This document shows, piece by piece, positions 17,267 to 29,584 of a DNA stretch of 64,000 bases. The notes under the pieces are model-generated. The model searched no databases, had not been told where the DNA came from, and saw only the letters and a program-made list of their open reading frames with translations. Location of the stretch: assembly GCA_937982665.1 (NCBI GenBank), contig CALJLD010000060.1, positions 16,596-80,595 of the forward strand, written 5' to 3'. The DNA is from an uncultured Planctomycetales bacterium. GTDB taxonomy: Bacteria; Planctomycetota; Planctomycetia; Pirellulales; S012-138. A program made the position numbers and the translations under genes. Each line of letters starts with the position of its first letter. The first letter of the stretch is position 1.

Positions 17267-17962
17267 TTACGATCTTATCGCCAAAGACATTGAATGCGTT
17301 TGGCCCTTTGCACTGCTGGGCCCCGCAACGTTCAACTTCTTCGGACCGCTGATGTATTGATTGTCGGCAAAAATGTAGCGAAGGGGAAGGTCCGCTGCGG
17401 AAGTCACTCCAATACGCGGAGTTGTGAGGATCTCGCACACGGCATCGCGGATTTCGGGCTGATCCCGTGCCTCGGCAATGAACAGCGATCGGCCTTTCGT
17501 CAAATCCCAGCCATTGAATTGGCGGTCAATCGCAAAGGCCTCGCATAGCCGGGCGGGTCCTCGGGCAAGGTCACGTACAGCATCGCGCCCTCGTCGTTGT
17601 CGCATCAAAGACATTCCAGCGAGCGGGTGAACTGCACGAATCAAGGCGGCACAGCCGGTACCCTCGGCGTCAGCGACGGTGTTGAAACAATGCCGTGCGT
17701 GAATCACATAGACATAGGCCGTGCCAGGCGGACCAAAAATTGCGGCCGTCTTGCGGTTGCTGCCGGCGACGGCATGACAGGCAGAATCTCCTTGGGGCAA
17801 GTAGGCTTCGGTTTCAACAATGCGGCCCAGAGTGGCGCCTTCTCGCGAACGCCTGACGATGAGCTTTCCTAACAGCTCACGCGCGACATCTCTCACATCG
17901 CGATCATAGAACTCGCGCGGCAGTGGCGATGGATGTGTGATGGCGTTCGTTTCTTTACTCAT
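17267..17962 (-). CDS. mpg: DNA-3-methyladenine glycosylase (Mpg/AAG family)
   Basis: Motifs FYDRDVRDVARELLGKLIVRR, GRIVETEAYL, D.ACHA, GTAYVYVIHARHCFN, ALIRAV.P. The start ATG at 17960-17962 overlaps the upstream kinase stop (ATGAGTAA). Confidence 0.85.
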   Translation of the reverse strand: MSKETNAITHPSPLPREFYDRDVRDVARELLGKLIVRRSREGATLGRIVETEAYLPQGDSACHAVAGSNRKTAAIFGPPGTAYVYVIHARHCFNTVADAEGTGCAALIRAVHPLAGMSLMRQRRGRDAVRDLARGPARLCEAFAIDRQFNGWDLTKGRSLFIAEARDQPEIRDAVCEILTTPRIGVTSAADLPLRYIFADNQYISGPKKLNVAGPSSAKGQTHSMSLAIRS

Positions 17963-19784
17963 TGCCGTCGGCTTCGTTCGATTCCGCCTCGGCGAGTTTT
18001 CTGGTGGCACTGTCAACATACTCTTGGGCCCAAGATTCGTCGGCGTAAAGAGTTTGAAGACCACGGAGGATTTGCTTGCCTTGTTCGCGGTCCTCGGCAT
18101 TTCCGTTGCTCAGAAATCGATCAGCGCGACCGAGACTCGATTCGATGAAATCTATTGCATCCTCGCGATATTCCGTCGCCGGCTCGCTGAGCTCTCCCAA
18201 CTCGTATTCGGCGGCCTCTAGATACTCAGGCAGATTCTCTATCTCATCACGGTCAATTCCCGCGGCTAGCACAACGAACGTTTGCAGCATTTCGGTTTGC
18301 CGGGTTGGCGAGAGCTGCGCATCGGTGGCACTCAAGAATAGACGCTCCAGCGGGTGCAATTTTCCGGGAGGCTTTCGACGTAATCGGTTGCGAAGATTGC
18401 GAGTGTTGGTGTTCTGTGCAAATGTGTTTTGGAAAGTACGAACTGCTTCCGCGTCCGAATGATTTGGAAAACGCTCAAGAAACTCAACGACTTTTTCCTC
18501 CACACGGTTGTATGCGTCTTCCGTGTCTTGCCCGATGGCTTGTTCAATTTCCGCATACAGATCATTAGCGCTAGGTGGTTGCATGAACCACCACACCAGG
18601 CCCAAGATGACAATCAATGCTGTCGCCAGCAAAACGATCTTTGGCCAGTTGCGAGTTGGTTCGTCGTCAGAAAGTAAGTCTTCGCCCAGGTCACTCTCAT
18701 CCACTTCCGTGTAATGAGTTGCCGGCGCAACTTCGCCTGACTCCGGATCACGGGCAACCACCGAAGCCTGTGTCGCGGCCAGATCTGAGTTCCCGGTTTG
18801 GCGAGTTGGCCCCATCAAATCGACCGAGTCGTTCTTGTGCTCGCCGGTGGCCACTCGTGTGAGTTCGATTTGTCCAGTCGCGCCAGGGTCAACGTGTGGG
18901 TCCGCGGGCGTTACGCCGGTGCCAAGTTCAAAATCACCGTCGCCTTCAGGCTTGACAATCTGTTTGGAAAGCCCCCGTTCGGTTGATTCCAAACGACGCA
19001 TCAAAACCGCGGCGTTGGAGACGCGCTCTTGCGGATCCTTTGACAACAGTTGCATGACGATGTCGTCAAACTCTCTGGGCACGTCCGCGTTGTGCCGCCG
19101 CAGCGGGTCGGGCTTGGAAAACCGCTGCATCTGCAGGACATCAACAATCGACTTGGAAACAAACGGAGGACGTCCGGCCACTAATGCGTAAAGAACTACG
19201 CCCAAGCTGTAGAGATCGCTGCGATGACTGACGGGGCGTCCGTCGGCTTGTTCGGGAGCCATGAACTCGGCGGTGCCGATAACACCGCCGGCCATGGTCA
19301 TGCCGGAGGCGCCAAACAACTTGGCGATCCCGAAATCGGAAATCTTGATTTGGCCTTCAGGCGTGATCATCAAGTTGGCAGGCTTGATATCGCGATGGAT
19401 CACGCCGCGGTCGTGCGCGTGCTTGAGCCCTTTGCACATTTGCACGCCGATTTGGGTCGCCTCGGACCAATCGAACTTTCGCCCTTTGCGAACCTCTTGC
19501 TCAAGGCTGCTGCCTTCGACAAGTTCCATTGTGTAGAAGAGTGTGCCATCCTGCTCCCCAAAGCCAAAGAGTCGCACGATGTTCTCATGCCGTAGTTTCC
19601 GCAACGTTTCAATCTCTTGTTCAAAACGCTCGCGAAAACCTTCGTCCGAGGCCAGAGACTGCGAAAGGACTTTGACCGCGACTCGCTCGCCGGAGTCTTC
19701 ATTCAGACCTGCGAAGACGGTCCCCATGCCGCCCCGGCCAAGTTGGTCACTAATGGTGTAAGGGCCAAGTTGCTTGAAATTCAT
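17955..19784 (-). CDS. Hanks-type serine/threonine protein kinase with TM helix and helical C-terminal ectodomain
   Basis: GRGGMGTVF, VAVK, HRDIKPAN, DFG, APEQ. TM helix WPKIVLLATALIVILGLVWWF, followed by about 200 aa of helical region. Confidence 0.9.
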   Translation of the reverse strand: MNFKQLGPYTISDQLGRGGMGTVFAGLNEDSGERVAVKVLSQSLASDEGFRERFEQEIETLRKLRHENIVRLFGFGEQDGTLFYTMELVEGSSLEQEVRKGRKFDWSEATQIGVQMCKGLKHAHDRGVIHRDIKPANLMITPEGQIKISDFGIAKLFGASGMTMAGGVIGTAEFMAPEQADGRPVSHRSDLYSLGVVLYALVAGRPPFVSKSIVDVLQMQRFSKPDPLRRHNADVPREFDDIVMQLLSKDPQERVSNAAVLMRRLESTERGLSKQIVKPEGDGDFELGTGVTPADPHVDPGATGQIELTRVATGEHKNDSVDLMGPTRQTGNSDLAATQASVVARDPESGEVAPATHYTEVDESDLGEDLLSDDEPTRNWPKIVLLATALIVILGLVWWFMQPPSANDLYAEIEQAIGQDTEDAYNRVEEKVVEFLERFPNHSDAEAVRTFQNTFAQNTNTRNLRNRLRRKPPGKLHPLERLFLSATDAQLSPTRQTEMLQTFVVLAAGIDRDEIENLPEYLEAAEYELGELSEPATEYREDAIDFIESSLGRADRFLSNGNAEDREQGKQILRGLQTLYADESWAQEYVDSATRKLAEAESNEADGNE

Positions 19785-19911
19785 AGCGAGTCAGTCGGCC
19801 AGCCGGAAGTCGGCCAAAGAGTACGAATGTGTGTTCACGCCCAGCATCGAGTTTATCAAGCGTCAGGCAAGAAAACACGCAGGGCAATACTCAAGCGTTT
19901 TTGCGGGGCGA

Positions 19912-20919
19912 TCACTGAACGGCCGCGAATCCTCCAATGTCCTCGGCGATTTCCGCGGCAACCTCGGCCACATCGCGATTTGCATTCATCTCCACCACAC
20001 GGCATTCACTCAGGCTTCGCAACCACGTCCGCTGGCGTTTCGCGAATCGTCGCGTGGCCGTTTGGATATCCGCAATCAATGAGTTGGAATCTTGCTGAGA
20101 ATTCAGCGTTTCAAGCAATTGCCGATAACCCACGGCCTGAGATGCTGTTCGACCCAGCGGCCCAGCAGCGGCAAGGATTCGCACTTCTTCTCGCCAGCCA
20201 CTTTCCAGCATACTTTCGACGCGACTGTTAATCCGAGGATTGAGTTCGTCGGTTGGCCAATTCAGCCAGTAGACGCGGCAGTCCTCGCGCGGGACCGGTT
20301 GGGCAAAATGGGCCGGCGTGTCACTGATGGGCCGGCCAGTGATCTTGTGGACTTCCATGGCGCGAATGACGCGTTTCAAGTCGTTGGGGTTGAGCCGCTT
20401 TGCGGATGGCGGGTCAATTTCCGCCAGCCGCGCGTGGACGGCTTCCTTCCCTTGCTCCTCCGCGATGGACTGCCAATGCTCACGGAACTCCCAATCCGGC
20501 GGAGGACCGGAATCAACGCCGCGCAACAGCCCTGTCAGATACAATGGTGTGCCGCCCACAAACAGTGACCGCTTGCCACGAGAGCTGATATCATGCATCG
20601 CCTGATGTGCAGCGGCGATGTACTGCCCCAGGCTGAATTCTTCCGACGGCGCAACCAGGTCAATCAAGTGATGCGGTACACGGTCCCGCTCCGCGACCGA
20701 AGGCTTGGCGGTGCCAACATCCATGCCGCGGTAGACGGCCATCGAGTCAAGCGAAAGGATCTCGGCATTGATCAGTTCCGCCAACTGCAAGCCCACTGCT
20801 GACTTGCCAGACGCGGTGGGTCCGGTCAAGAAGATTGCGCGCCCGCCAACAGGATTGAAAGCATCCGCCGCGGGAACATTCGCATCCGGAGATTGGTCTG
20901 GCTGTTGGCGCGAAGGCAT
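19912..20919 (-). CDS. miaA: tRNA dimethylallyltransferase
   Basis: P-loop GPTASGKS, then DSM.VYRGMDVGTAKP, HHLID and GGT.LY motifs. Confidence 0.9.
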   Translation of the reverse strand: MPSRQQPDQSPDANVPAADAFNPVGGRAIFLTGPTASGKSAVGLQLAELINAEILSLDSMAVYRGMDVGTAKPSVAERDRVPHHLIDLVAPSEEFSLGQYIAAAHQAMHDISSRGKRSLFVGGTPLYLTGLLRGVDSGPPPDWEFREHWQSIAEEQGKEAVHARLAEIDPPSAKRLNPNDLKRVIRAMEVHKITGRPISDTPAHFAQPVPREDCRVYWLNWPTDELNPRINSRVESMLESGWREEVRILAAAGPLGRTASQAVGYRQLLETLNSQQDSNSLIADIQTATRRFAKRQRTWLRSLSECRVVEMNANRDVAEVAAEIAEDIGGFAAVQ

Positions 20920-21036
20920 ACAGAGCGGCCGAGCATCTTAGCTGGCGGAAAAGCAGAGTCGTTGAGGCGCAGCTTGCGCCAAACCGCTATCCTAGCCAGC
21001 CAAGCAGCTTTTCGCGACTGATTGAGACACTGTGGG

Positions 21037-21540
21037 CTAGGGTGTTGCCTGCTCGCCAACTTTTGCCGCAGCGACGAAATCATCCGTCAACCTCAAGAGA
21101 ACCTCGCGCGTAACCTCGGCATCCAACGGAGTGCGGCTTGTGCCGCCGGGAGTGTTCTTCCACCGGCGAAGTTCAATATTCCCGCCATTGCGGACCAGCA
21201 TTTCATAATACACGGTCCCGTCATCGTCCTTGCGCGGCGGAATCGAGCGCAATTGCACGACGGCGCCTTCGGAATCAATCTCGATAGGCCCAATTGCTTC
21301 GAGCAGATATGTCACGCGATCCGAAAGATCCTGCGAGACTTTCTTTAACGTCTCCGTCGCCGCACCACGAATCCGCTCGGTCTGCAGGGCCATCCGCTTA
21401 AACGCGCAGGCGATGCTGTCCAACGCGGTCAGATCAACCTCAAGGTTATCAACGTCATGCGCTAAGGTGAGATTCGCAGGCGCCGGGAGCGGTGTCGGCT
21501 GCGTGGAAAGAGCGCTGGCGAGTTGTTGACGAAGACTCAT
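21037..21540 (-). CDS. hypothetical protein (167 aa), last gene of the prkA-type operon
   Basis: ATG at 21538-21540, only 29 nt downstream of the spoVR-like stop. No recognisable motif. Confidence 0.5.
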   Translation of the reverse strand: MSLRQQLASALSTQPTPLPAPANLTLAHDVDNLEVDLTALDSIACAFKRMALQTERIRGAATETLKKVSQDLSDRVTYLLEAIGPIEIDSEGAVVQLRSIPPRKDDDGTVYYEMLVRNGGNIELRRWKNTPGGTSRTPLDAEVTREVLLRLTDDFVAAAKVGEQATP

Positions 21541-21569
21541 GGGATGGCCTCTTCTTCTGGCCGCAGTTT

Positions 21570-23105
21570 CTAGTTGGCGGCGGCCGTGGATTTCTCCTTG
21601 GTCACTTGGTGTTCCGTTCCGTCATACGACACGATGCAGAATTCCTCTTCCAATTGTGATTCAATGTGGACGGGGCGTCTCCAAAGTGCATACAGATTTG
21701 AGAGCGTGTCTTTGGCATAAGCCAGGTCAAGCTCCACACCTTCAAAACGATGTTCCAAATAGAGTTCGCCACGGTTCTTGTGGTTCGCGTCTCGCACATA
21801 AATATGCGGACGGCCGCGGTTGGTAAGTCCAAACAACAGTCGCTGCTTGATCTGCTGGAACTCACGGCTCTCTAATTCGTAGTAATCGGACCGTTTGTTG
21901 TAGGCAAACGAGAAAAGGTTTTGCCGGCGGCAGAATTCTGGCGTCAGGAAGGTGTCAATAAACGTGATATCGTTGTGGACCTGGCGGACTTCAAAGATCT
22001 TCTCCCGGCCCAAACCGGCTTCCGTATTCCACTGCTCCTGCTTCCGCCAGTCGTCACATTCCTCGAACTCTTTGCCGAATTTGCCCCGGTTCCAGCGATC
22101 TTCGATATCGCGGAACAACTCCAAGCCCAGCTTGTAGGGGTTCAAGCGGCCGGGTTGTGTGGCCAAAGTTCCGGCTGTGTGGTCGGCATAGTTGATGACA
22201 TCCGCCGGCTCCAAGCCGTGGCGAGTCATGATGGTTGAGTGCCAATAGGTCGCCCAACCCTCGTTCATGATCTTGGTCTGACCCTGCGGCGCGAAGTAAT
22301 AGGCTTCGTCGCGAATGATCGAAAGCACATCCGCCTGCCAGGGTTTGAGCGGCGCATGCTCGATGAGGAATTGGACGACATCGCGGCGCGGTTTTGCGGG
22401 AAAACGCTCTTCTTGAGCCTGCAGCTCTTCTCGCCGTGCGTCTTGTTCTGCCTTGAGGACGTCCGGCGGATTGATGAACCGGTCCATGTACTGCTTGGCC
22501 TTAAACTTGCCATCGGCATCGTCCCCGTCGCCTTCTGCGGCTGACGAGAAATCATAGCGGTTGGCCGGCCCTTCATCGCGTTTGATGAAGGGAGAGTAGA
22601 TGTCGATCAAGTCTTCCAAGCTAAGGCAAGCGTCAATGAATGTCTCAACCTCTTCAACGCCAAAACGGTCCATGTAACGGCGGATGCGATTGCCGTGATT
22701 GGCCATCTCATCCATCATCTTGCGATTGGTCTGACTGAACCACTGGTTGTTCTTAAAGAAATCGCAGTGACCGTAAACGTGAGCCATGACCAACTTCTGA
22801 TCGGTCAGCTCGTTGGATTTCATCAAGTAGGCGTAACACGGATTGTTGTTGATCACCAACTCGTAGATCTTCTGCAGCCCATAAGAGTAGCCTTTGGAAA
22901 GCTGCTCGTACTCCATGCCAAAACGCCAGTGGGGATAGCGCGTGGGGAAGCCACCGTATGCAGCAATGGCGTTGAGCTGGTCATGATCGACGAGTTCGAA
23001 GATCGTCGGAAAGAAATCCAGGCCATACTTCTTGGCGTACGCTTCAATTTCCCGCTGGATGTTGCGGAGTTCCTCAGTCAACGGAGTGAAGGAGTGAAGC
23101 GCCAT
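21570..23105 (-). CDS. SpoVR/YcgB family protein
   Basis: 511 aa. N-terminus [21 protein letters not shown]...MEYEQL, then [12 protein letters not shown] and NEGWATYWH, all characteristic of SpoVR. Confidence 0.9.
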
Positions 23106-23172
23106 GGGGCATTCTGTTGATGTTTCGAATTCGCAGGCTGGTTGGACGCAATATGCAAACCGTGCTTTGAAA

Positions 23173-23376
23173 TCAGCCTAATTGGCGAATATCAAAGTCG
23201 GTGTCTTGCATGTCGTAGATCTGGTCCCACAAGCGCGGCAGGTCCATGCCAAGTTTGCGGCGGGCAATTCGCAGGGCCTCGGCTTCGCTTGCGGCTTCAA
23301 CGACAAGGCAATGATGTCCGACTTGGACTTCGTACTTGCGCTGTTGCGGTTCGGGTTGACGGTTGTTCGCGTTCAT
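23173..23376 (-). CDS. small hypothetical protein (67 aa) between the yeaH-like and spoVR-like genes
   Basis: In-frame ATG at 23374-23376 inside the 120-aa track ORF, whose longer form would overlap yeaH. Sequence: [67 protein letters not shown]. Codon usage looks native. Both flanks are 67-nt gaps. Confidence 0.45.
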
Positions 23377-23443
23377 CGGTGTGACAAACAGTTGCTCTCG
23401 GGATGAAATCGATCTTTGTTGACTGCTCGTAGTTCGTTGCGGC

Positions 23444-24547
23444 TTACTTGCCCTTGCCAAGGAAAGTCTTGATGGAGTCAAAAATCGCTTCCTTGTCTTC
23501 GATCTCTGACAGCACGACATTCTCGGTATCGCCAAGGCCTTCGCTCAGGGCGCGAATGTACTCGCCGGAACCGTAAGGGCTTTCGACCTGTCCGTAGCAA
23601 AACAGATTGACGTGCGGGACGATGCCGTCACGCAAGATCTGCAAGGCTTGTTCGTTGTCTTCGCCCCAGTTGTCTCCGTCAGAGAACTGGAAACAGTAGA
23701 TGTTCCAATCCGCGGCTGGAAACTCGCGCTCGATCAGTTGCGCGGCCACCTTATATGCGGCGCTGATCCGTGTGCCGCCGCTTTCGCGCGTGTGATAGAA
23801 CGTGTGCTCGTCAACTTCCTTGGCGGCTGCGTCATGGATGATGTAACGCTGTTCAACGCCGTCGTAGTTGGACTTCAGCCACGTATCGATCCAAAAACTC
23901 TCAGTGCGGACAATCTCCTTTTGCTCGTCAGTCATCGAACCGGAGACATCCATCATGTAGATGATTGCCGCGTTGGCGACCGGCTCCATCTTCACGTCCC
24001 ACGACCGATAGCGTTTGTCTTCGCGAATGGGAACGACAATCGGCCGTCGCGCGTCATATTTGCTCGAGGCAATTTGCCGACGCAACGCCTGCACGTAAGT
24101 ACGCTTGAAATGCCGTAGCGATTCCGGCCCGGTACGGCGGATGCTGTTGTAGCGGGCTTTCTCTTCACTGACGGTTTCTTTGCCTTTGGGTTCAATCCGT
24201 GGCAATTCCAACTCATCGCCCAGGATTTCCGCCAGCTCTTCCAAACTGACTTCAACCTCCAAGATGTGACCGCCGGGGGTATCTCCGGCTTGCCCTTGTC
24301 CCTGTTGCCCTTGCCCAGGACCGAGCGGATCACCCGGCTCGCCTTCTCCTTGTCCAGCCCCACCGGCACCGTTATCGCCAAAGCGAAAATGCGGCGTATC
24401 AAGCTGAGGCAGCGGAATGCTGACGAGATCCTTCCCCTTACGGCCAATCATTTCGCCGTGGGTGACGTACTTCTTCAGATTCTCGCGGATCTTGCCGCGA
24501 ACAATCTGGCGGAAGCGATTCTGATCTCGTTCGATCTTGAGGGACAT
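23444..24547 (-). CDS. YeaH/YhbH family protein (DUF444, vWA-like)
   Basis: Motifs [20 protein letters not shown], a G/Q-rich linker, and the MIDAS-like MMDVSGSM. Confidence 0.9.
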
Positions 24548-24758
24548 TGGTCAGTGAGTCAGGAGTTTGTGGTTCAGGAGGATGAACTTCGCTTTCGTTG
24601 TTTGGCCAGTTGTTCTTGTAAGTGGATGTATTGCGAGCGGGCCGCAACGCTTTGGCCATAAGCGCCTCGGCAACCGTTCTTTGCGTGGGCGAGCCCCCCG
24701 CAGCTTCCGCCCTATGTTGCGTTGGTAACAACTGTGAGGGCGCTCGCTCCGGTCTCGC

Positions 24759-26801
24759 CTAACTCTTGGTATCCCCGCGGGCGAAGATGCTGGCCACATA
24801 GTTGAGCACGTCCGTCGCGCTTTCGTCGTCGTACCCAAAGTCACGGATCAACCGGCTCTTAACGACGTCAATCTTTGCTTGCGTGTCGGCATCGACCACG
24901 TTGGAAACCAGGCTCGAGAGCTTGATGGAATCCTTCTGGTCTTCAAACAGCTTGAGCTCCAAGGCCTTGTGCAGGCGCTCATTGGTCTTGTAGTCAAACT
25001 TCTTGCCGTCGATCGACAAGGCGCCGATGTAGTTCATGATTTCGCGACGGAAATCATCCTTGCGGCTTTCCGGGATGTCGATCTTCTCTTCGATCGACCG
25101 CATCAGGCGTTCATCCGGCTCTTCGTACTGCCCGGTGAACTTGTTCTTGACCTTCTCGTGCTGAGTGTAGGCCTTGATGTTGTCGATGTAGTTGGCACAC
25201 AGCCGCTTCAAGGCGTCCTCATCGGCGGCGATCGCCCGTTGGACCTCGTTCTTGACGATGTTCTCGTACTCCTCTTTGACAACACCCAGCAGATCGCGGT
25301 AGTGCTGCTTGAGTTCGTCATTGTTAATCAGCGAATGATGCTTCAAACCGGCTTCCAGTTCATTGAGCACCATGAAGGGGTTGATGCTCTTGGAGTCCGC
25401 GTGGGCAACCAGCGCGTTGGAGATCTTGTCTTGCACATAGCGCGGGGAAATGCCTTGCAACCCTTCGTAAATGGCTTCTTCCCGCAGTTCCTTAATGTTC
25501 TCTTCCGTGAAACCTGGCAGTGTCTTGCCGTTATAGAGCTTGAGCTTCTGCATCAGCGTCAAGCCGGCGTTCTTTGGCTCTTCCAACCGAGTGAGCACAG
25601 CCCACATGGCCGCCATCTCAATGGTGTGCGGAGCGATGTGCTTGCCTTTGACCTTTTCGTTGTTGTAGTCCTTCTCGTAGATGTGGATTTCATCGTTGAG
25701 TCGGGTGACGTAGGGAATGTCGATCTTCACCGTTCGGTCGCGAAGAGCTTCCATGAACTCGTTGCTCTGCAAGCGGCGATACTCGGGCTCATTGGTATGG
25801 CCGATGATCACTTCATCGATATCTGTCTGGGCGAACTTCTTCGGCTTGACCTTATGTTCCTGGCTTGCGCCAAGCAGGTCATAGAGGAAGGCCACGTCCA
25901 GCTTGAGGACTTCGACAAACTCGACCACGCCTCGGTTGGCGACGTTGAACTCGCCATCAAAGTTGAAGGCGCGCGGGTCGCTGTCGCTGCCGTACTCGGC
26001 GATCTTGCGATAGTTGATGTCGCCGGTGAGTTCCGTGGAGTCCTGGTTCTTTTCATCCTTCGGTTGGAAGGTTCCAATGCCCACGCGATCTTTCTCGCTG
26101 AGGATGACGCGGCGAACGCGCACGTCTTCCAACACGCGCGGCCAATCACCGCCGTATCGCTTCAGCCGCTCCGCATAGATGAAGCGGCAGAACGGGCAGA
26201 GTTCGCCTTCGATGCGGACGTGATAGTCGTTCTCGGCTTGGTTCTCGTTGAGGTTGGCTGCCACATCGCCGCGGAAGCGCTCAGGCATGATGTGCAACGG
26301 CTCCTCATTCATCGGGCACCAATGCACAGCGGACTCGTCCTCCAGGTCTTTCCAACCGATGGAGTACAAAGCGCCTTCGTCAGATTGCGAGTATCGCTCC
26401 AGCCCCTTCTTGATGATGCGAACAATTGTGCTCTTGGAACTGCCGACAGGTCCGTGCAAGAGGAGCACGCGACGTTCTATGCCATAGCCCTTGGCGGCAC
26501 TCTTGAGCGCGTTGACCAGGTCCGCCAATGCGGTGTCGATGCCGAAGACGGCATCCCGCCCATGATTGTCCGGGTCCGAGAAGAAGCGATATTGGATCCG
26601 CTTCTCGCGGCCGTGTTCATAATCGACGGTGCCGTACGACATGATCATGTCGTACATGCGCTCATAAGCGTTTCGCGTCACTTGCGGGTTCTGCTTCACA
26701 ATATCCAGGTATTCCGCGAAGCTTCCTTCCCAGATCTTCTTGCGGAACTGGTCCAAGTCCTGGCGCGAAGCCACAAGGTTGATGATGTCGATTCCAGTCA
26801 T
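24759..26801 (-). CDS. prkA: PrkA family serine protein kinase (AAA+ N-domain)
   Basis: Walker [14 protein letters not shown], and length and sequence typical of PrkA/YeaG. Start refined to the ATG at 26801 behind GGGAG. Confidence 0.9.
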
Positions 26802-27491
26802 CTTGCTCCCTTTGTTCCTTGCCGCTGGCAACCTCTTGATTGCCAGTTGGCGATGGTTTGCCGCCTTCTTTTGTTTTTTGTGATCTGTTGGCGAGTTCGT
26901 GCGACTTTCTGGAAACGTGTGACGACCTCACTCCGAAATTTACGTCGCGCAGCCGCTTGCCTTCGGCGAAATCTCGGAACAGGGGGTGAATTGCTTGTTT
27001 CGCGGCGCGCAGCGGCGAATGACGGACCTCTCAAGGGCGTCATCCCCATCAAGAAGTGGCGCATTTTGCTACACCAGAGCGTGCAATCCGCACGGAATTG
27101 ACTTCCGCGCAGCCGCGCGCGTCAGATGGGACGCAGAGAGAATCCGAATTTGCGCAGCAGCGAATGCCGCGAAACTCGCTTGGGGGATTGCAAAAGATCG
27201 TTGCTGAGCGGGTGTGACAATCAGGCAGGTCTGGGGATTTCCGCTCAATCAGTTACGGAACGTCCTTGCGCCGCGCTGAGCGTTGCTTGTCACCGTCGAT
27301 TCTGCTCAACCACTTGTAGTATTGCTCGCACCCTGGGGGCAGGCAATACCAACCGGTGTTGCCAAAAAGCATCAACTGGGAACGCCGGTGCAGCGGAGAT
27401 CACTGCATAAGACATTGATAAATAATGACTTACGAGATCAACTCCGCGAGAGTTTTTCGCCGCCGGAATCTTCTCAAAAGTGTGTACTTTG

Positions 27492-27875
27492 TCAGGCAAA
27501 CGCCTTTTCCACAGATTCCAACAACCTGTCCATGGCGAACGGTTTACGGATGTAATCCGTCACTCCCAGCATCTCCGCATAGGCCTTGTGGCGACTCCCT
27601 TCGTTGGCCGTGATCATGATGACGGGGATTTGCCGCCCTTCGTTGCGACGCAGCTTCTCAAGCACCAGAAAGCCGCTGCGCTTGGGCATCATCATGTCCA
27701 AGATCACCAGGCCAGGGAGTTCGTGCTCGGCCAGGGCCAAACCCTGGTTTCCGTCTCGGGCAATCTTCACTTGATAGCCGCGAGACTCCAAAGCCAGACG
27801 CACCGATTCAACAATTTCGCGGTCGTCATCGACGACCAGCACGGTGCGGTCACCGTCATCATTTTCATTAGCCAT
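27492..27875 (-). CDS. single-domain response regulator (CheY-like receiver)
   Basis: 127 aa with VLVVDDD, a phospho-acceptor context LVILDMMMP, the T position in VIMITA, and the conserved K in IRKPF. Confidence 0.9.
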   Translation of the reverse strand: MANENDDGDRTVLVVDDDREIVESVRLALESRGYQVKIARDGNQGLALAEHELPGLVILDMMMPKRSGFLVLEKLRRNEGRQIPVIMITANEGSRHKAYAEMLGVTDYIRKPFAMDRLLESVEKAFA

Positions 27876-28145
27876 CTGCGCATCCAGAAAACGCCGTCCC
27901 TAACGTCATGCACCAATCAGGTGAAATCAGTATCGTCCACCTGATCAAGATTGCAAGCGCTGGACGGTGCTCTGCACTAACCATGGCTGCGCGCAAACAT
28001 CAGGCCTCACCTCTGCTGTAAAGCATTGGCGCGTGGCTGGCCGCGTGCATAGAGCAATCTCCTCCGGACCCTACGCCCGCCCCGCCGGCCAGCCTCGCGC
28101 CAATTGGCGAATCCTCAACGCGAAACAGGTTTCTTTGAGCTCATT

Positions 28146-28169
28146 GTGAGAGCTATCGTGAGAGCTATC
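28146..28169. repeat. 12-nt tandem duplication (GTGAGAGCTATC x2) spanning the stop codon of the 28165-28488 gene
   Basis: Read directly. Unit 1 is 28146-28157, unit 2 is 28158-28169, followed by a partial GTG. Confidence 0.8.
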
Positions 28170-28488
28170 GTGCGGTGTCTTTCTCGCTGATCTCCTCTTG
28201 TTGTCGGATCAAATTGCGCCGTACGAGCCCCAGTTCGTGTCTTGCTGCCCCAAATTCTTGATGTGTTTGCATTCGCTCGGCCTTGCGCAATCCGCGAACA
28301 ACCGACGAACGCTGGGTTTCTGTCAGCGGCAATTGCCCCACAAGGTCCAAGGCCGTGAGGAAATGCCGCGAAATGTCCAGCGGTTGTTGGGCCAAGGCGA
28401 TGAGCTGTGAGACAATCCCAATCGATGTTTCGAACAAGTTATTCCTCGCATTGATCGCCGATTGGACGACGCCGCCGACAGTCCCCAT
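28165..28488 (-). CDS. hypothetical helical protein (107 aa)
   Basis: ATG at 28486-28488. Divergent from the ECF sigma gene. No TM helix and no recognisable motif. Confidence 0.45.
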   Translation of the reverse strand: MGTVGGVVQSAINARNNLFETSIGIVSQLIALAQQPLDISRHFLTALDLVGQLPLTETQRSSVVRGLRKAERMQTHQEFGAARHELGLVRRNLIRQQEEISEKDTAR

Positions 28489-28782
28489 TGGAAATACCCC
28501 TCTTGCAGCATTGATTGGTCAATCAACTGCTATCCCCACTCGTAAATGATCCACTAGCCTTGAACTCGCAATCGAGCCTTGGGACCCCTCACGGAATTTG
28601 AAAAAAATCTTCGAATGTTCGCCTGTCCCCAAAAACCGCCGTTTTTCGGTAGTGTTATGCAAACGCATGATGCTCAAACCGGTTGCCGTTGTGCCGCCTC
28701 GCTAATCAGCTTGCGGCTGGCTGCTGGCAAAACTAGCATCAATGTTCTCTTCTCTATTGCTCTGGATTCTTAAGGGGGAGCC

Positions 28783-29406
28783 ATGTCAAGCAGCAGCTCG
28801 CAGGCCAGTTTCAGCGACTCGGTTTCGGACTTGTTGGAACAGCTCAAAGCCGGCAAGCAAACCGCCGCTCAAGGGATCTGGTCGCGCTACGTGGAACGGC
28901 TTGTAAATGAAGCCCAAAAACGCCTGCGCAACTCGTCGCGGCGCGTCGCTGACGAAGACGACGTCGTCAACCACGCGTTCGGTTCATTTCTGGAAGGAGT
29001 CAAGCAAGGGCGCTACAGCAAACTGAATGACCGAACGGATCTGTGGCAAGTCTTGGTCATGCTGGTAGAACGCAAAGCCATCGACCAGATTCGCGCGCTT
29101 GACGCTCAAAAGCGCGGCAATGGTCAAACGCGCGGCGATTCCATCTTCCAAAAAGCTACAGACGAGTCCGGCGCGATTGGCTTTGACGGAATTGTCGATC
29201 CGCATCCCTCGCCAACGTTGGTGAAGATGTTTTGCGAGCAGTTTCGCGCATTCCTGAATGGACTTGATGAGCAATTTCGCGAAGTTGCCATACTCAAACT
29301 GCAGAACTACACCAACCAAGAGATCGCTGACATAGTTGGAATCAGTGTGAGTTCCGTGGAAAGAAAGCTCTCCATCATTCGTGACGGATGGCGAAAGCAA
29401 GAATAG
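28783..29406 (+). CDS. ECF-type RNA polymerase sigma factor (Sigma70_ECF / kinase-associated type)
   Basis: RBS AAGGGGGAG upstream. Region 2-like WSRYVERLVNEAQKRL...DEDDVVNHAF and region 4 HTH NYTNQEIADIVGISVSSVERKL. Adjacent to a Ser/Thr kinase gene. Confidence 0.85.
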   Translation: MSSSSSQASFSDSVSDLLEQLKAGKQTAAQGIWSRYVERLVNEAQKRLRNSSRRVADEDDVVNHAFGSFLEGVKQGRYSKLNDRTDLWQVLVMLVERKAIDQIRALDAQKRGNGQTRGDSIFQKATDESGAIGFDGIVDPHPSPTLVKMFCEQFRAFLNGLDEQFREVAILKLQNYTNQEIADIVGISVSSVERKLSIIRDGWRKQE

Positions 29407-29584
29407 CAGCCAGTCGAGTTGTCAACTTGCTGCGAGCCCTTCAAGGCGTGGGTGCAAATAATCGCAAAGCGAAGCGGGCGATCATGCGAAAGTCACTCGC
29501 GCAATGTGCGAAGTTGAAATGCCGTGAACGCATTTTCAACATTGGTGGCGGCAACCGGCAGCAAGAAAACCCAAGGAGTGAATC

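Follow-up and report, generated by a model that had tools for sequence, protein, structure and literature searches.

In an uncultured Planctomycetales bacterium of the Pirellulales (GTDB lineage S012-138; assembly GCA_937982665.1), the three genes of the PrkA-YeaH-SpoVR module are accompanied by two small genes encoding proteins of 167 and 67 amino acids (aa), and the first of these is linked specifically and near-obligately to spoVR. The genes lie on the minus strand between positions 21037 and 26801 of a stretch of 64,000 nucleotides (nt) of contig CALJLD010000060.1 (positions 16,596 to 80,595 of its forward strand), which is called the window in the following and to which all positions refer. 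The 167-aa gene (21037-21540) follows spoVR (21570-23105) and the 67-aa gene (23173-23376) is located at the junction between yeaH and spoVR. Both small open reading frames (ORFs) are real genes that evolve under purifying selection and are inherited together with the PrkA module. The locus is a four- or five-component form of this module and defines two unnamed protein families. For the 167-aa protein the probable role is that of an accessory subunit dedicated to SpoVR and coupled to it, and for the 67-aa protein that of a lineage-specific accessory.

How tightly is the 167-aa gene bound to its neighbor? Among 80 genome loci picked by SpoVR similarity alone, spoVR is followed directly by a same-strand member of the 167-aa family in 38; it is missing in 37, and five loci are too short to tell. 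A hidden Markov model of the family, iterated over all ORFs of the loci without the gene, converged with zero new matches, and the genes downstream of spoVR in these loci are heterogeneous. The reverse test used 76 metagenome loci retrieved via the 167-aa family (alignment A1), a sample biased to Pirellulales-like sequences, and spoVR lies directly upstream in 65 of the 66 loci having at least 150 nt of upstream sequence. The sole exception (L162) is a metagenome contig of 1163 nt carrying rplJ, a truncated rplL and a C-terminal fragment of the 167-aa family, probably the result of chimeric assembly or else a remnant of the gene. Moreover, the start of the 167-aa gene overlaps the stop of spoVR in 59 of 100 non-redundant loci, 49 times as a 4-nt ATGA and nine times over 35-38 nt, the latter being typical of Gemmata and Isosphaera, and in 21 further loci the distance to spoVR is 60 nt or less. 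Beyond the 167-aa gene the neighbors vary, with miaA in the window and in its closest relative (L005), chlorite dismutase in L002 and other genes in L001. In two Gemmataceae loci (L042 and L043) spoVR and the 167-aa gene are detached together, and prkA-yeaH is not found within 5 kb. Since a split of the operon leaves the 167-aa gene beside spoVR, the specific partner of the gene is spoVR, and not the kinase module in general to which the first-pass annotation, made by a model from the sequence alone, had tied it.

The family to which the 167-aa protein belongs is large. An initial search gave ten relatives, a profile built from 25 diverged members at genomic loci (alignment A3) found 544 clusters at 90% identity, and an exhaustive profile search extended the family to at least 1,385 clusters (50% identity), of which 1,100 have E ≤1e-10. 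Among the 150 matches listed, all are standalone proteins and nearly all have a length of about 150-175 aa; sources that give them a name label them as hypothetical proteins, for example in Gemmata palustris (WP_210652116.1). Ten residues are invariant (L79, E81, E87, D89, R98, S99, P102, E113, R126 and T144) and four more are about 99% conserved (D41, R136, E146 and D154); the motif series of the family is TYLLE ... E-x-D ... RS-x-x-P ... YYE ... R ... T-x-E. The protein of the window carries every invariant residue, and its length lies in the family's range of about 155-170 aa. In a neighbor-joining tree of SpoVR the gene occurs with few losses across the whole Planctomycetia clade (Pirellulales, Planctomycetales, Gemmatales and Isosphaerales) and also in metagenome-assembled genomes (MAGs) of KSB1/Zhuqueibacterota, Nitrospinae, Spirochaetia, Deferribacteres and Calditrichia. 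It was not detected beside spoVR in the sampled Phycisphaerae, Myxococcota, Bdellovibrionota, Acidobacteria, Verrucomicrobia and Pseudomonadota. These taxa are MAG labels, some of them unreliable, as the "Alcaligenaceae" locus L043, which groups with Gemmataceae. The suggestion of the first-pass annotation that the additional ORFs are lineage-specific thus applies to the 67-aa gene, which is of Pirellulales type, and does not hold for the 167-aa gene, which is present in all sampled orders of the Planctomycetia and in at least five other phylum-level groups. In four loci of Planctomycetales type (L039, L041, L044 and L058) spoVR stands without prkA-yeaH upstream and without the 167-aa gene downstream, and the encoded SpoVRs form a subclade beside the partnered ones; they may represent a second, orphan paralogue in some Planctomycetales.

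Purifying selection is evident from the comparison with L005, in which the proportion of nonsynonymous differences (pN) is far below that of synonymous differences (pS): 0.21 versus 0.81 for the 67-aa ORF and 0.14 versus 0.71 for the 167-aa ORF, compared with 0.066 versus 0.69 for spoVR, at amino-acid identities of 80% and 74%. Furthermore, the reading frames are kept open and length and motifs are preserved in the 24 sequences of the 67-aa family, with identities as low as 30-45%, and in members of the 167-aa family with an identity of only about 20%, and both ORFs are called as genes in public data, where identical proteins exist (P0001 and P0011). That both could be chance ORFs or non-coding spacers of a GC-rich genome was worth considering, as the region has a GC content of 55-58% and is rich in long shadow ORFs, among them one of 740 aa antisense to prkA, and as neither small ORF has a Pfam match. 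Against this stand the substitution pattern, the conservation of frame, length and motifs, and, for the 167-aa protein, the 1,385 clusters and a structure model of very high confidence, by which the non-coding explanation is effectively refuted and retains a negligible probability. The first-pass annotation had pointed to homologues of both small proteins, to their synteny with prkA triads in other Planctomycetota and to codon substitution as the evidence by which the ORFs should be judged; homologues were found down to 20-45% identity, the synteny exists and the substitution pattern is that of protein-coding genes.

The 67-aa family comprises 24 sequences of 63-77 aa that are 30-45% identical and share the motif Y-x-V-x-V-G-H ... 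A-x-x-x-A-R ... L-P-R-L-(W/Y)-D-x-I ... F-x-V, of which the protein of the window carries V17, G20-H21, A34, A38-R39, P47-R48, D51, I53 and F61. All copies found sit between yeaH and spoVR. Four of the 80 genome loci have the gene, all within the Pirellulales part of the SpoVR tree. Of the 76 metagenome loci 17 carry it; yeaH can be seen in 29 of the 76, and 14 of these 29 are among the 17. It also occurs at L001 and L005-L007. The gaps to its neighbors range from 35 to 300 nt and are thus uncoupled, and most triads have a yeaH-spoVR gap of less than 100 nt without the gene. Public gene calls for the family give 65-67 aa. A longer reading of 120 aa from a TTG codon (23173-23535) was considered and rejected, because the frames of homologues close 0-29 codons upstream of the ATG (106 codons in L117) and the length of the extension is variable; the upstream part (23377-23535, minus strand), which overlaps the 3' end of yeaH by 92 nt, does not belong to the gene. 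The preference of the first-pass annotation for the 67-aa start is therefore upheld, and gene calls of 120 or 54 aa made elsewhere can be corrected. The predicted fold is beta-beta-alpha-alpha-beta, at moderate confidence (predicted local distance difference test score, pLDDT, 76.5, from a four-sequence alignment). Searches of Pfam, NCBIfam, PADLOC, PHROG and the PDB with the 67-aa protein gave nothing below E 0.03 and no recurring match, no structural neighbors of its model were found, and no mobile-element or toxin-antitoxin signature was seen in the family.

For the 167-aa protein AlphaFold2 yields a confident model (pLDDT 95.8, predicted template modelling score 0.90, 73-sequence alignment) in which a helix (residues 3-13) is followed by three strands (22-58), a second helix (62-75), seven strands (83-144) and a long C-terminal helix (145-165). 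The protein is a soluble alpha+beta protein with a grand average of hydropathy of -0.27, and the median isoelectric point of the family is 6.1. Along the predicted strands the residues E87/D89, Q96/R98, Y111/E113 and L124/R126 alternate with hydrophobic positions, which suggests that one conserved polar face is exposed on the C-terminal beta-sheet of the model. Neither Pfam nor NCBIfam, PADLOC or PHROG contains a match above cutoff (the best being Phasin with 16.5 bits versus 28.8), none of the weak matches recurs over the 73 scanned members of the family, and a sequence-profile search of the PDB gave nothing. Similarly, Foldseek revealed no significant match of the model in the PDB or in BFVD; the best PDB neighbor was the DUF4468 protein 4e6f_A (E 0.015, template modelling (TM) score 0.36, probability 0.97), followed by START, Bet v 1, Whirly and PUR folds with TM scores of 0.31 or less. 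The TBP-like and helix-grip folds among these neighbors (DUF4468 4e6f, START, Bet v 1) resemble the model in having an antiparallel sheet backed by helices, but differ from it with TM scores of only 0.27-0.36, E values of 0.015 or more and no sequence similarity. A TBP-like or SRPBCC fold (START, Bet v 1) was consequently not assigned, the TM scores being below the criterion of 0.5, although a remote relationship to these folds may exist. The order of elements in the helix-grip fold also differs from the alpha-beta3-alpha-beta7-alpha order of the model. An origin of the small proteins as split-off domains of the core proteins or by internal duplication was rejected, as hhalign probabilities are below 4% for both families against PrkA, YeaH, SpoVR and each other, and likewise for the N-terminal against the C-terminal half of the 167-aa protein, which excludes an internal repeat. 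No family database naming either small protein was found, the InterPro members covered being Pfam and NCBIfam.

How does this operon compare with known systems? It contains the same three Pfam-matched families in the same order as the canonical PrkA/YeaG-YeaH/YhbH-SpoVR/YcgB triad and differs from it by the two dedicated genes, the products of which are non-homologous to the three core proteins according to hhalign. Strong mutual cofitness of the triad genes has been reported, with their biochemical function described as unresolved (10.1101/072470). In PrkA an AAA+ protein is combined with a C-terminal domain of kinase-like type, and the protease and kinase activities of PrkA are disputed (PMC13001217, PMC9512850). 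A lineage-wide expanded triad likewise exists in haloarchaea as a cluster of four genes, consisting of two adjacent PrkA paralogues, DUF444 and SpoVR (PMC3102087). The additional gene in that cluster is a duplicated prkA, whereas the additional genes of the window encode two small unnamed families unrelated to PrkA. The haloarchaeal cluster was the only expanded version found, and no literature on a fourth or fifth gene of the bacterial triad came up in a search of incomplete coverage. In the PDB PrkA is represented by 9xip, 9xiq and 9xir, which contain PrkA only (a "Serine protein kinase" of 692 aa, 30 chains over the three entries), and no structure of SpoVR or DUF444 was found there. MoxR-type AAA+ proteins and their von Willebrand factor A (VWA) partners form remodelling pairs with small accessory or client proteins, as in RavA-ViaA, CbbQ-CbbO and NorQ-NorD. 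As in these pairs, an AAA+ ATPase is encoded beside a protein with a DxSxS motif in the case of PrkA and YeaH, and by this analogy, which serves as a lead only, further proteins encoded in a PrkA operon could be clients or adaptors. PrkA, however, has been reported as a Lon/clade-III-like AAA+ protein and is not of the MoxR type, and no homology of the small proteins to clients of MoxR systems was found, although no dedicated test was made.

In the explanation that we favor as probable, both small proteins are accessories of the module: a dedicated subunit in the case of the 167-aa protein and a lineage-specific protein in that of the 67-aa one. The 167-aa gene would be transcribed together with spoVR and in most genomes be translationally coupled to it, and the two proteins would be made together, presumably in matched amounts. 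We infer that the 167-aa protein may physically bind SpoVR, with the conserved polar face of the sheet (E87, D89, R98, E113, R126 and Y111) contacting either SpoVR itself or one of the module's ligands or clients, and that it may act as a fourth, accessory or regulatory subunit of a starvation/stress machine in the Planctomycetia and in a small number of other phyla. The product of the 67-aa gene, which is inserted at the yeaH-spoVR junction of the same operon, would be a second and narrower accessory of Pirellulales type; the purifying selection on this gene and its fixed position argue for a role tied to the module. Several observations weigh against this explanation. About half of the sampled triads are without the 167-aa gene, and the model triads of E. 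coli and Bacillus, which are not known to have it, function without it, so that it is not a core requirement. A fusion of spoVR with the 167-aa gene was not found in the loci examined: the apparent fusion at L053 (4938-6998) is probably an assembly error of a long-read MAG with a frameshift in the 167-aa gene, and that at L030 (4967-7006) is a long shadow ORF in a different frame. Columns and indels of SpoVR that seemed to mark partnered SpoVRs turned out to carry phylogenetic signal only, as partnered SpoVRs from outside the planctomycetes lack them. Neither a known fold nor a known family provided a clue to the function of the small proteins. For the 67-aa gene, most loci were retrieved around spoVR, which makes them a biased test of its position; unbiased evidence comes from database matches to the protein itself, all four of which lie just upstream of spoVR. 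Finally, unrelated genes have been inserted between yeaH and spoVR in other lineages, namely genes for the putative endonuclease Uma2 (two in tandem at L024, 3549-4906; L025, 4208-4894; L031, 1971-2528), for a TylF-type methyltransferase (L076, 4137-4895), for a ClpB-like AAA ATPase (L067, 3610-4965) and for a Hanks Ser/Thr kinase fused to a Peripla_BP_5/6 domain (L036, 1763-4417). The junction thus acts like an insertion hot-spot. In two loci of Gemmataceae type, L036 and L043 (2288-4954), such a fused kinase is encoded directly upstream of spoVR and the 167-aa gene.

If unrelated insertions make the junction permissive, the 67-aa gene could be a tolerated passenger there, and it could be imagined that one or both small genes merely share a transcript with the module. 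For the 67-aa gene such a passenger status is possible, as its distribution within the Pirellulales clade is patchy (four of about 20 genome loci, and 14 of the 29 metagenome loci with a visible junction) and its distances to both neighbors do not indicate coupling. This has to be set against 24 diverged sequences all found at a single junction, the purifying selection and the missing signature of a mobile element or a toxin-antitoxin system. For the 167-aa gene passenger status is unlikely, given that it stays adjacent to spoVR in all but one of the testable loci, across phyla and with changing genes downstream, and given that a stop/start overlap in 59% of loci is hard to square with hitch-hiking. 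Taken over both genes, hitch-hiking appears improbable. The main rival is a different one, in which the 167-aa protein, instead of being a subunit, would serve the module as its dedicated client or substrate and be phosphorylated or remodelled by PrkA/YeaH/SpoVR, for example at the loop R98-S99-x-x-P102, its modified state being the output. S99 and T144 are invariant, R98-S99 ends a predicted strand right before the invariant proline, and the tight co-expression with spoVR through stop/start overlaps would suit a client as well. PrkA/YeaG has been reported to phosphorylate itself and casein in vitro (10.1101/072470), and the literature gives no physiological substrates of the triad. On the other hand, the phosphorylation of the 167-aa protein is hypothetical, the invariant serine and threonine may be purely structural, purified B. 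anthracis PrkA showed negligible kinase and protease activity in a 2026 study, and in split operons the linkage of the gene tracks spoVR and not prkA. We consider the client role less probable than that of an accessory subunit, at something like one chance among several, and better placed than hitch-hiking.

The three core genes themselves are unambiguous. prkA, yeaH and spoVR are adjacent and co-oriented, and the same order is found in most of the 80 genome loci. prkA/yeaG (24759-26801, minus strand) encodes 680 aa from its ATG, with an AAA+ ATPase domain and the PrkA C-terminal kinase-like domain, both matched at full length in Pfam (PF08298, AAA_PrkA, 1e-95, profile positions 2-357 of 358; PF06798, PrkA, 1.2e-87, 1-255 of 255). 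The translation contains the Walker A motif GPVGSSKS and matches "Serine protein kinase" 9xip of the PDB with E 5e-290. The ORF extends to an alternative TTG start at 26831 (24759-26831), the ATG at 26801 being internal; a length of 680 aa was adopted because relatives are called at 680 aa. yeaH/yhbH (DUF444; 23444-24547, minus strand) encodes 367 aa with a DxSxS motif (MDVSGSM) and matches PF04285 in two stretches up to the end of the profile (5.9e-86, 289.6 bits versus a cutoff of 27). spoVR/ycgB, also on the minus strand as are both small genes, encodes 511 aa and exceeds the cutoffs of both PF04293 (4e-145, 484.1 bits) and SpoVR_C PF24755 (4.8e-9, 36.5 bits). The window derives from a metagenome-assembled, Pirellulales-like planctomycete. 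Proteins identical to those of the window occur on ENA and Logan contigs, and among the species-representative genomes the best match to SpoVR reaches 72% identity. The genes are separated by 211 nt between prkA and yeaH, 67 nt on either side of the 67-aa gene and 29 nt between spoVR and the 167-aa gene. Five co-oriented genes with these gaps, including the two of exactly 67 nt, had been described by the first-pass annotation, and the ORF list, Pfam and the coordinates agree with that description. The two 67-nt gaps are not repeats of each other, since their sequences share no repeat, and in L005 the gaps flanking the 67-aa gene measure 61 and 60 nt; their equality in the window is therefore a coincidence.

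Signals for transcription and its control were also searched for. The minus strand shows no terminator-like sites from 21037 to 26801, an indirect hint that the five genes may be co-transcribed. A hairpin acting as terminator downstream of the 167-aa gene is unsupported (z = -0.66), scans for sigma-70 promoters and terminators showed no enrichment versus shuffled sequences, and an Rfam scan of 19500-29500 gave no matches. In E. coli yeaGH has a sigma-54 promoter. Upstream of prkA in the window (26802-27491) no match to a sigma-54 promoter was found, and window-wide matches are below chance. An inverted repeat, TGGCAA...TTGCCA (26819-26845), which overlaps TTGCCGCTGGCAA and lies 20-45 nt upstream of the prkA ATG, was rejected as a sigma-54 promoter on account of its wrong spacing; it is also not conserved in L005. 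Farther upstream, an island of 51 nt (27303-27353, minus strand; GTTGGTATTGCC...GCAATACTACAAGTGGTTGAGCA) with a 7-bp inverted repeat (GTATTGC-N17-GCAATAC) is nearly identical in L005/L006 (4217-4267), and the rest of the 690-nt intergenic region upstream of prkA has diverged. The island is located about 140 nt past the stop of a response-regulator gene and precedes the prkA ATG by about 500 nt. It was not seen in loci of more distant relationship and could serve as operator, promoter or RNA hairpin. The response-regulator gene (27492-27875, minus strand) encodes a CheY-like single-domain protein (PF00072, 2.6e-28) and has close homologues at the same position in L005/L006, L009 and L014; in Pirellulales its product may act as a partner in regulating the operon. 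Beyond it follow an ORF of 107 aa without family match (28165-28488, minus strand) and, divergent to it, a gene for an extracytoplasmic function (ECF) sigma factor (28783-29406, plus strand), a layout conserved only in L005/L006. On the other side of the operon, miaA (isopentenyl pyrophosphate (IPP) transferase, 335 aa) and a gene for a Hanks-type Ser/Thr kinase of 609 aa (together 17955-20919, minus strand) come after the 167-aa gene; the gap to miaA is 117 nt in the same orientation without a significant terminator hairpin, and the arrangement is common only to the closest relatives L005-L007.

What does the expanded operon mean for the PrkA module? The triad is among the most widespread bacterial and archaeal modules of unexplained mechanism, affecting starvation survival, sporulation and nutrient use. 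The 167-aa gene offers an experimental entry point through its coupling to spoVR, the confident predicted structure of its product and the few invariant residues on the predicted surface, permitting co-purification with SpoVR, point mutants and screens for ligands or phosphorylation, and the module could become more tractable in organisms in which it consists of four or five parts. It is conceivable, if rather a long shot, that the 167-aa protein, with a fold that has no solved relative, is the client of the PrkA-YeaH-SpoVR machine or a ligand-sensing subunit that docks on SpoVR via its polar face. If true, the pair of SpoVR and the 167-aa protein would reveal the activity of a module that has been unexplained for some 30 years.

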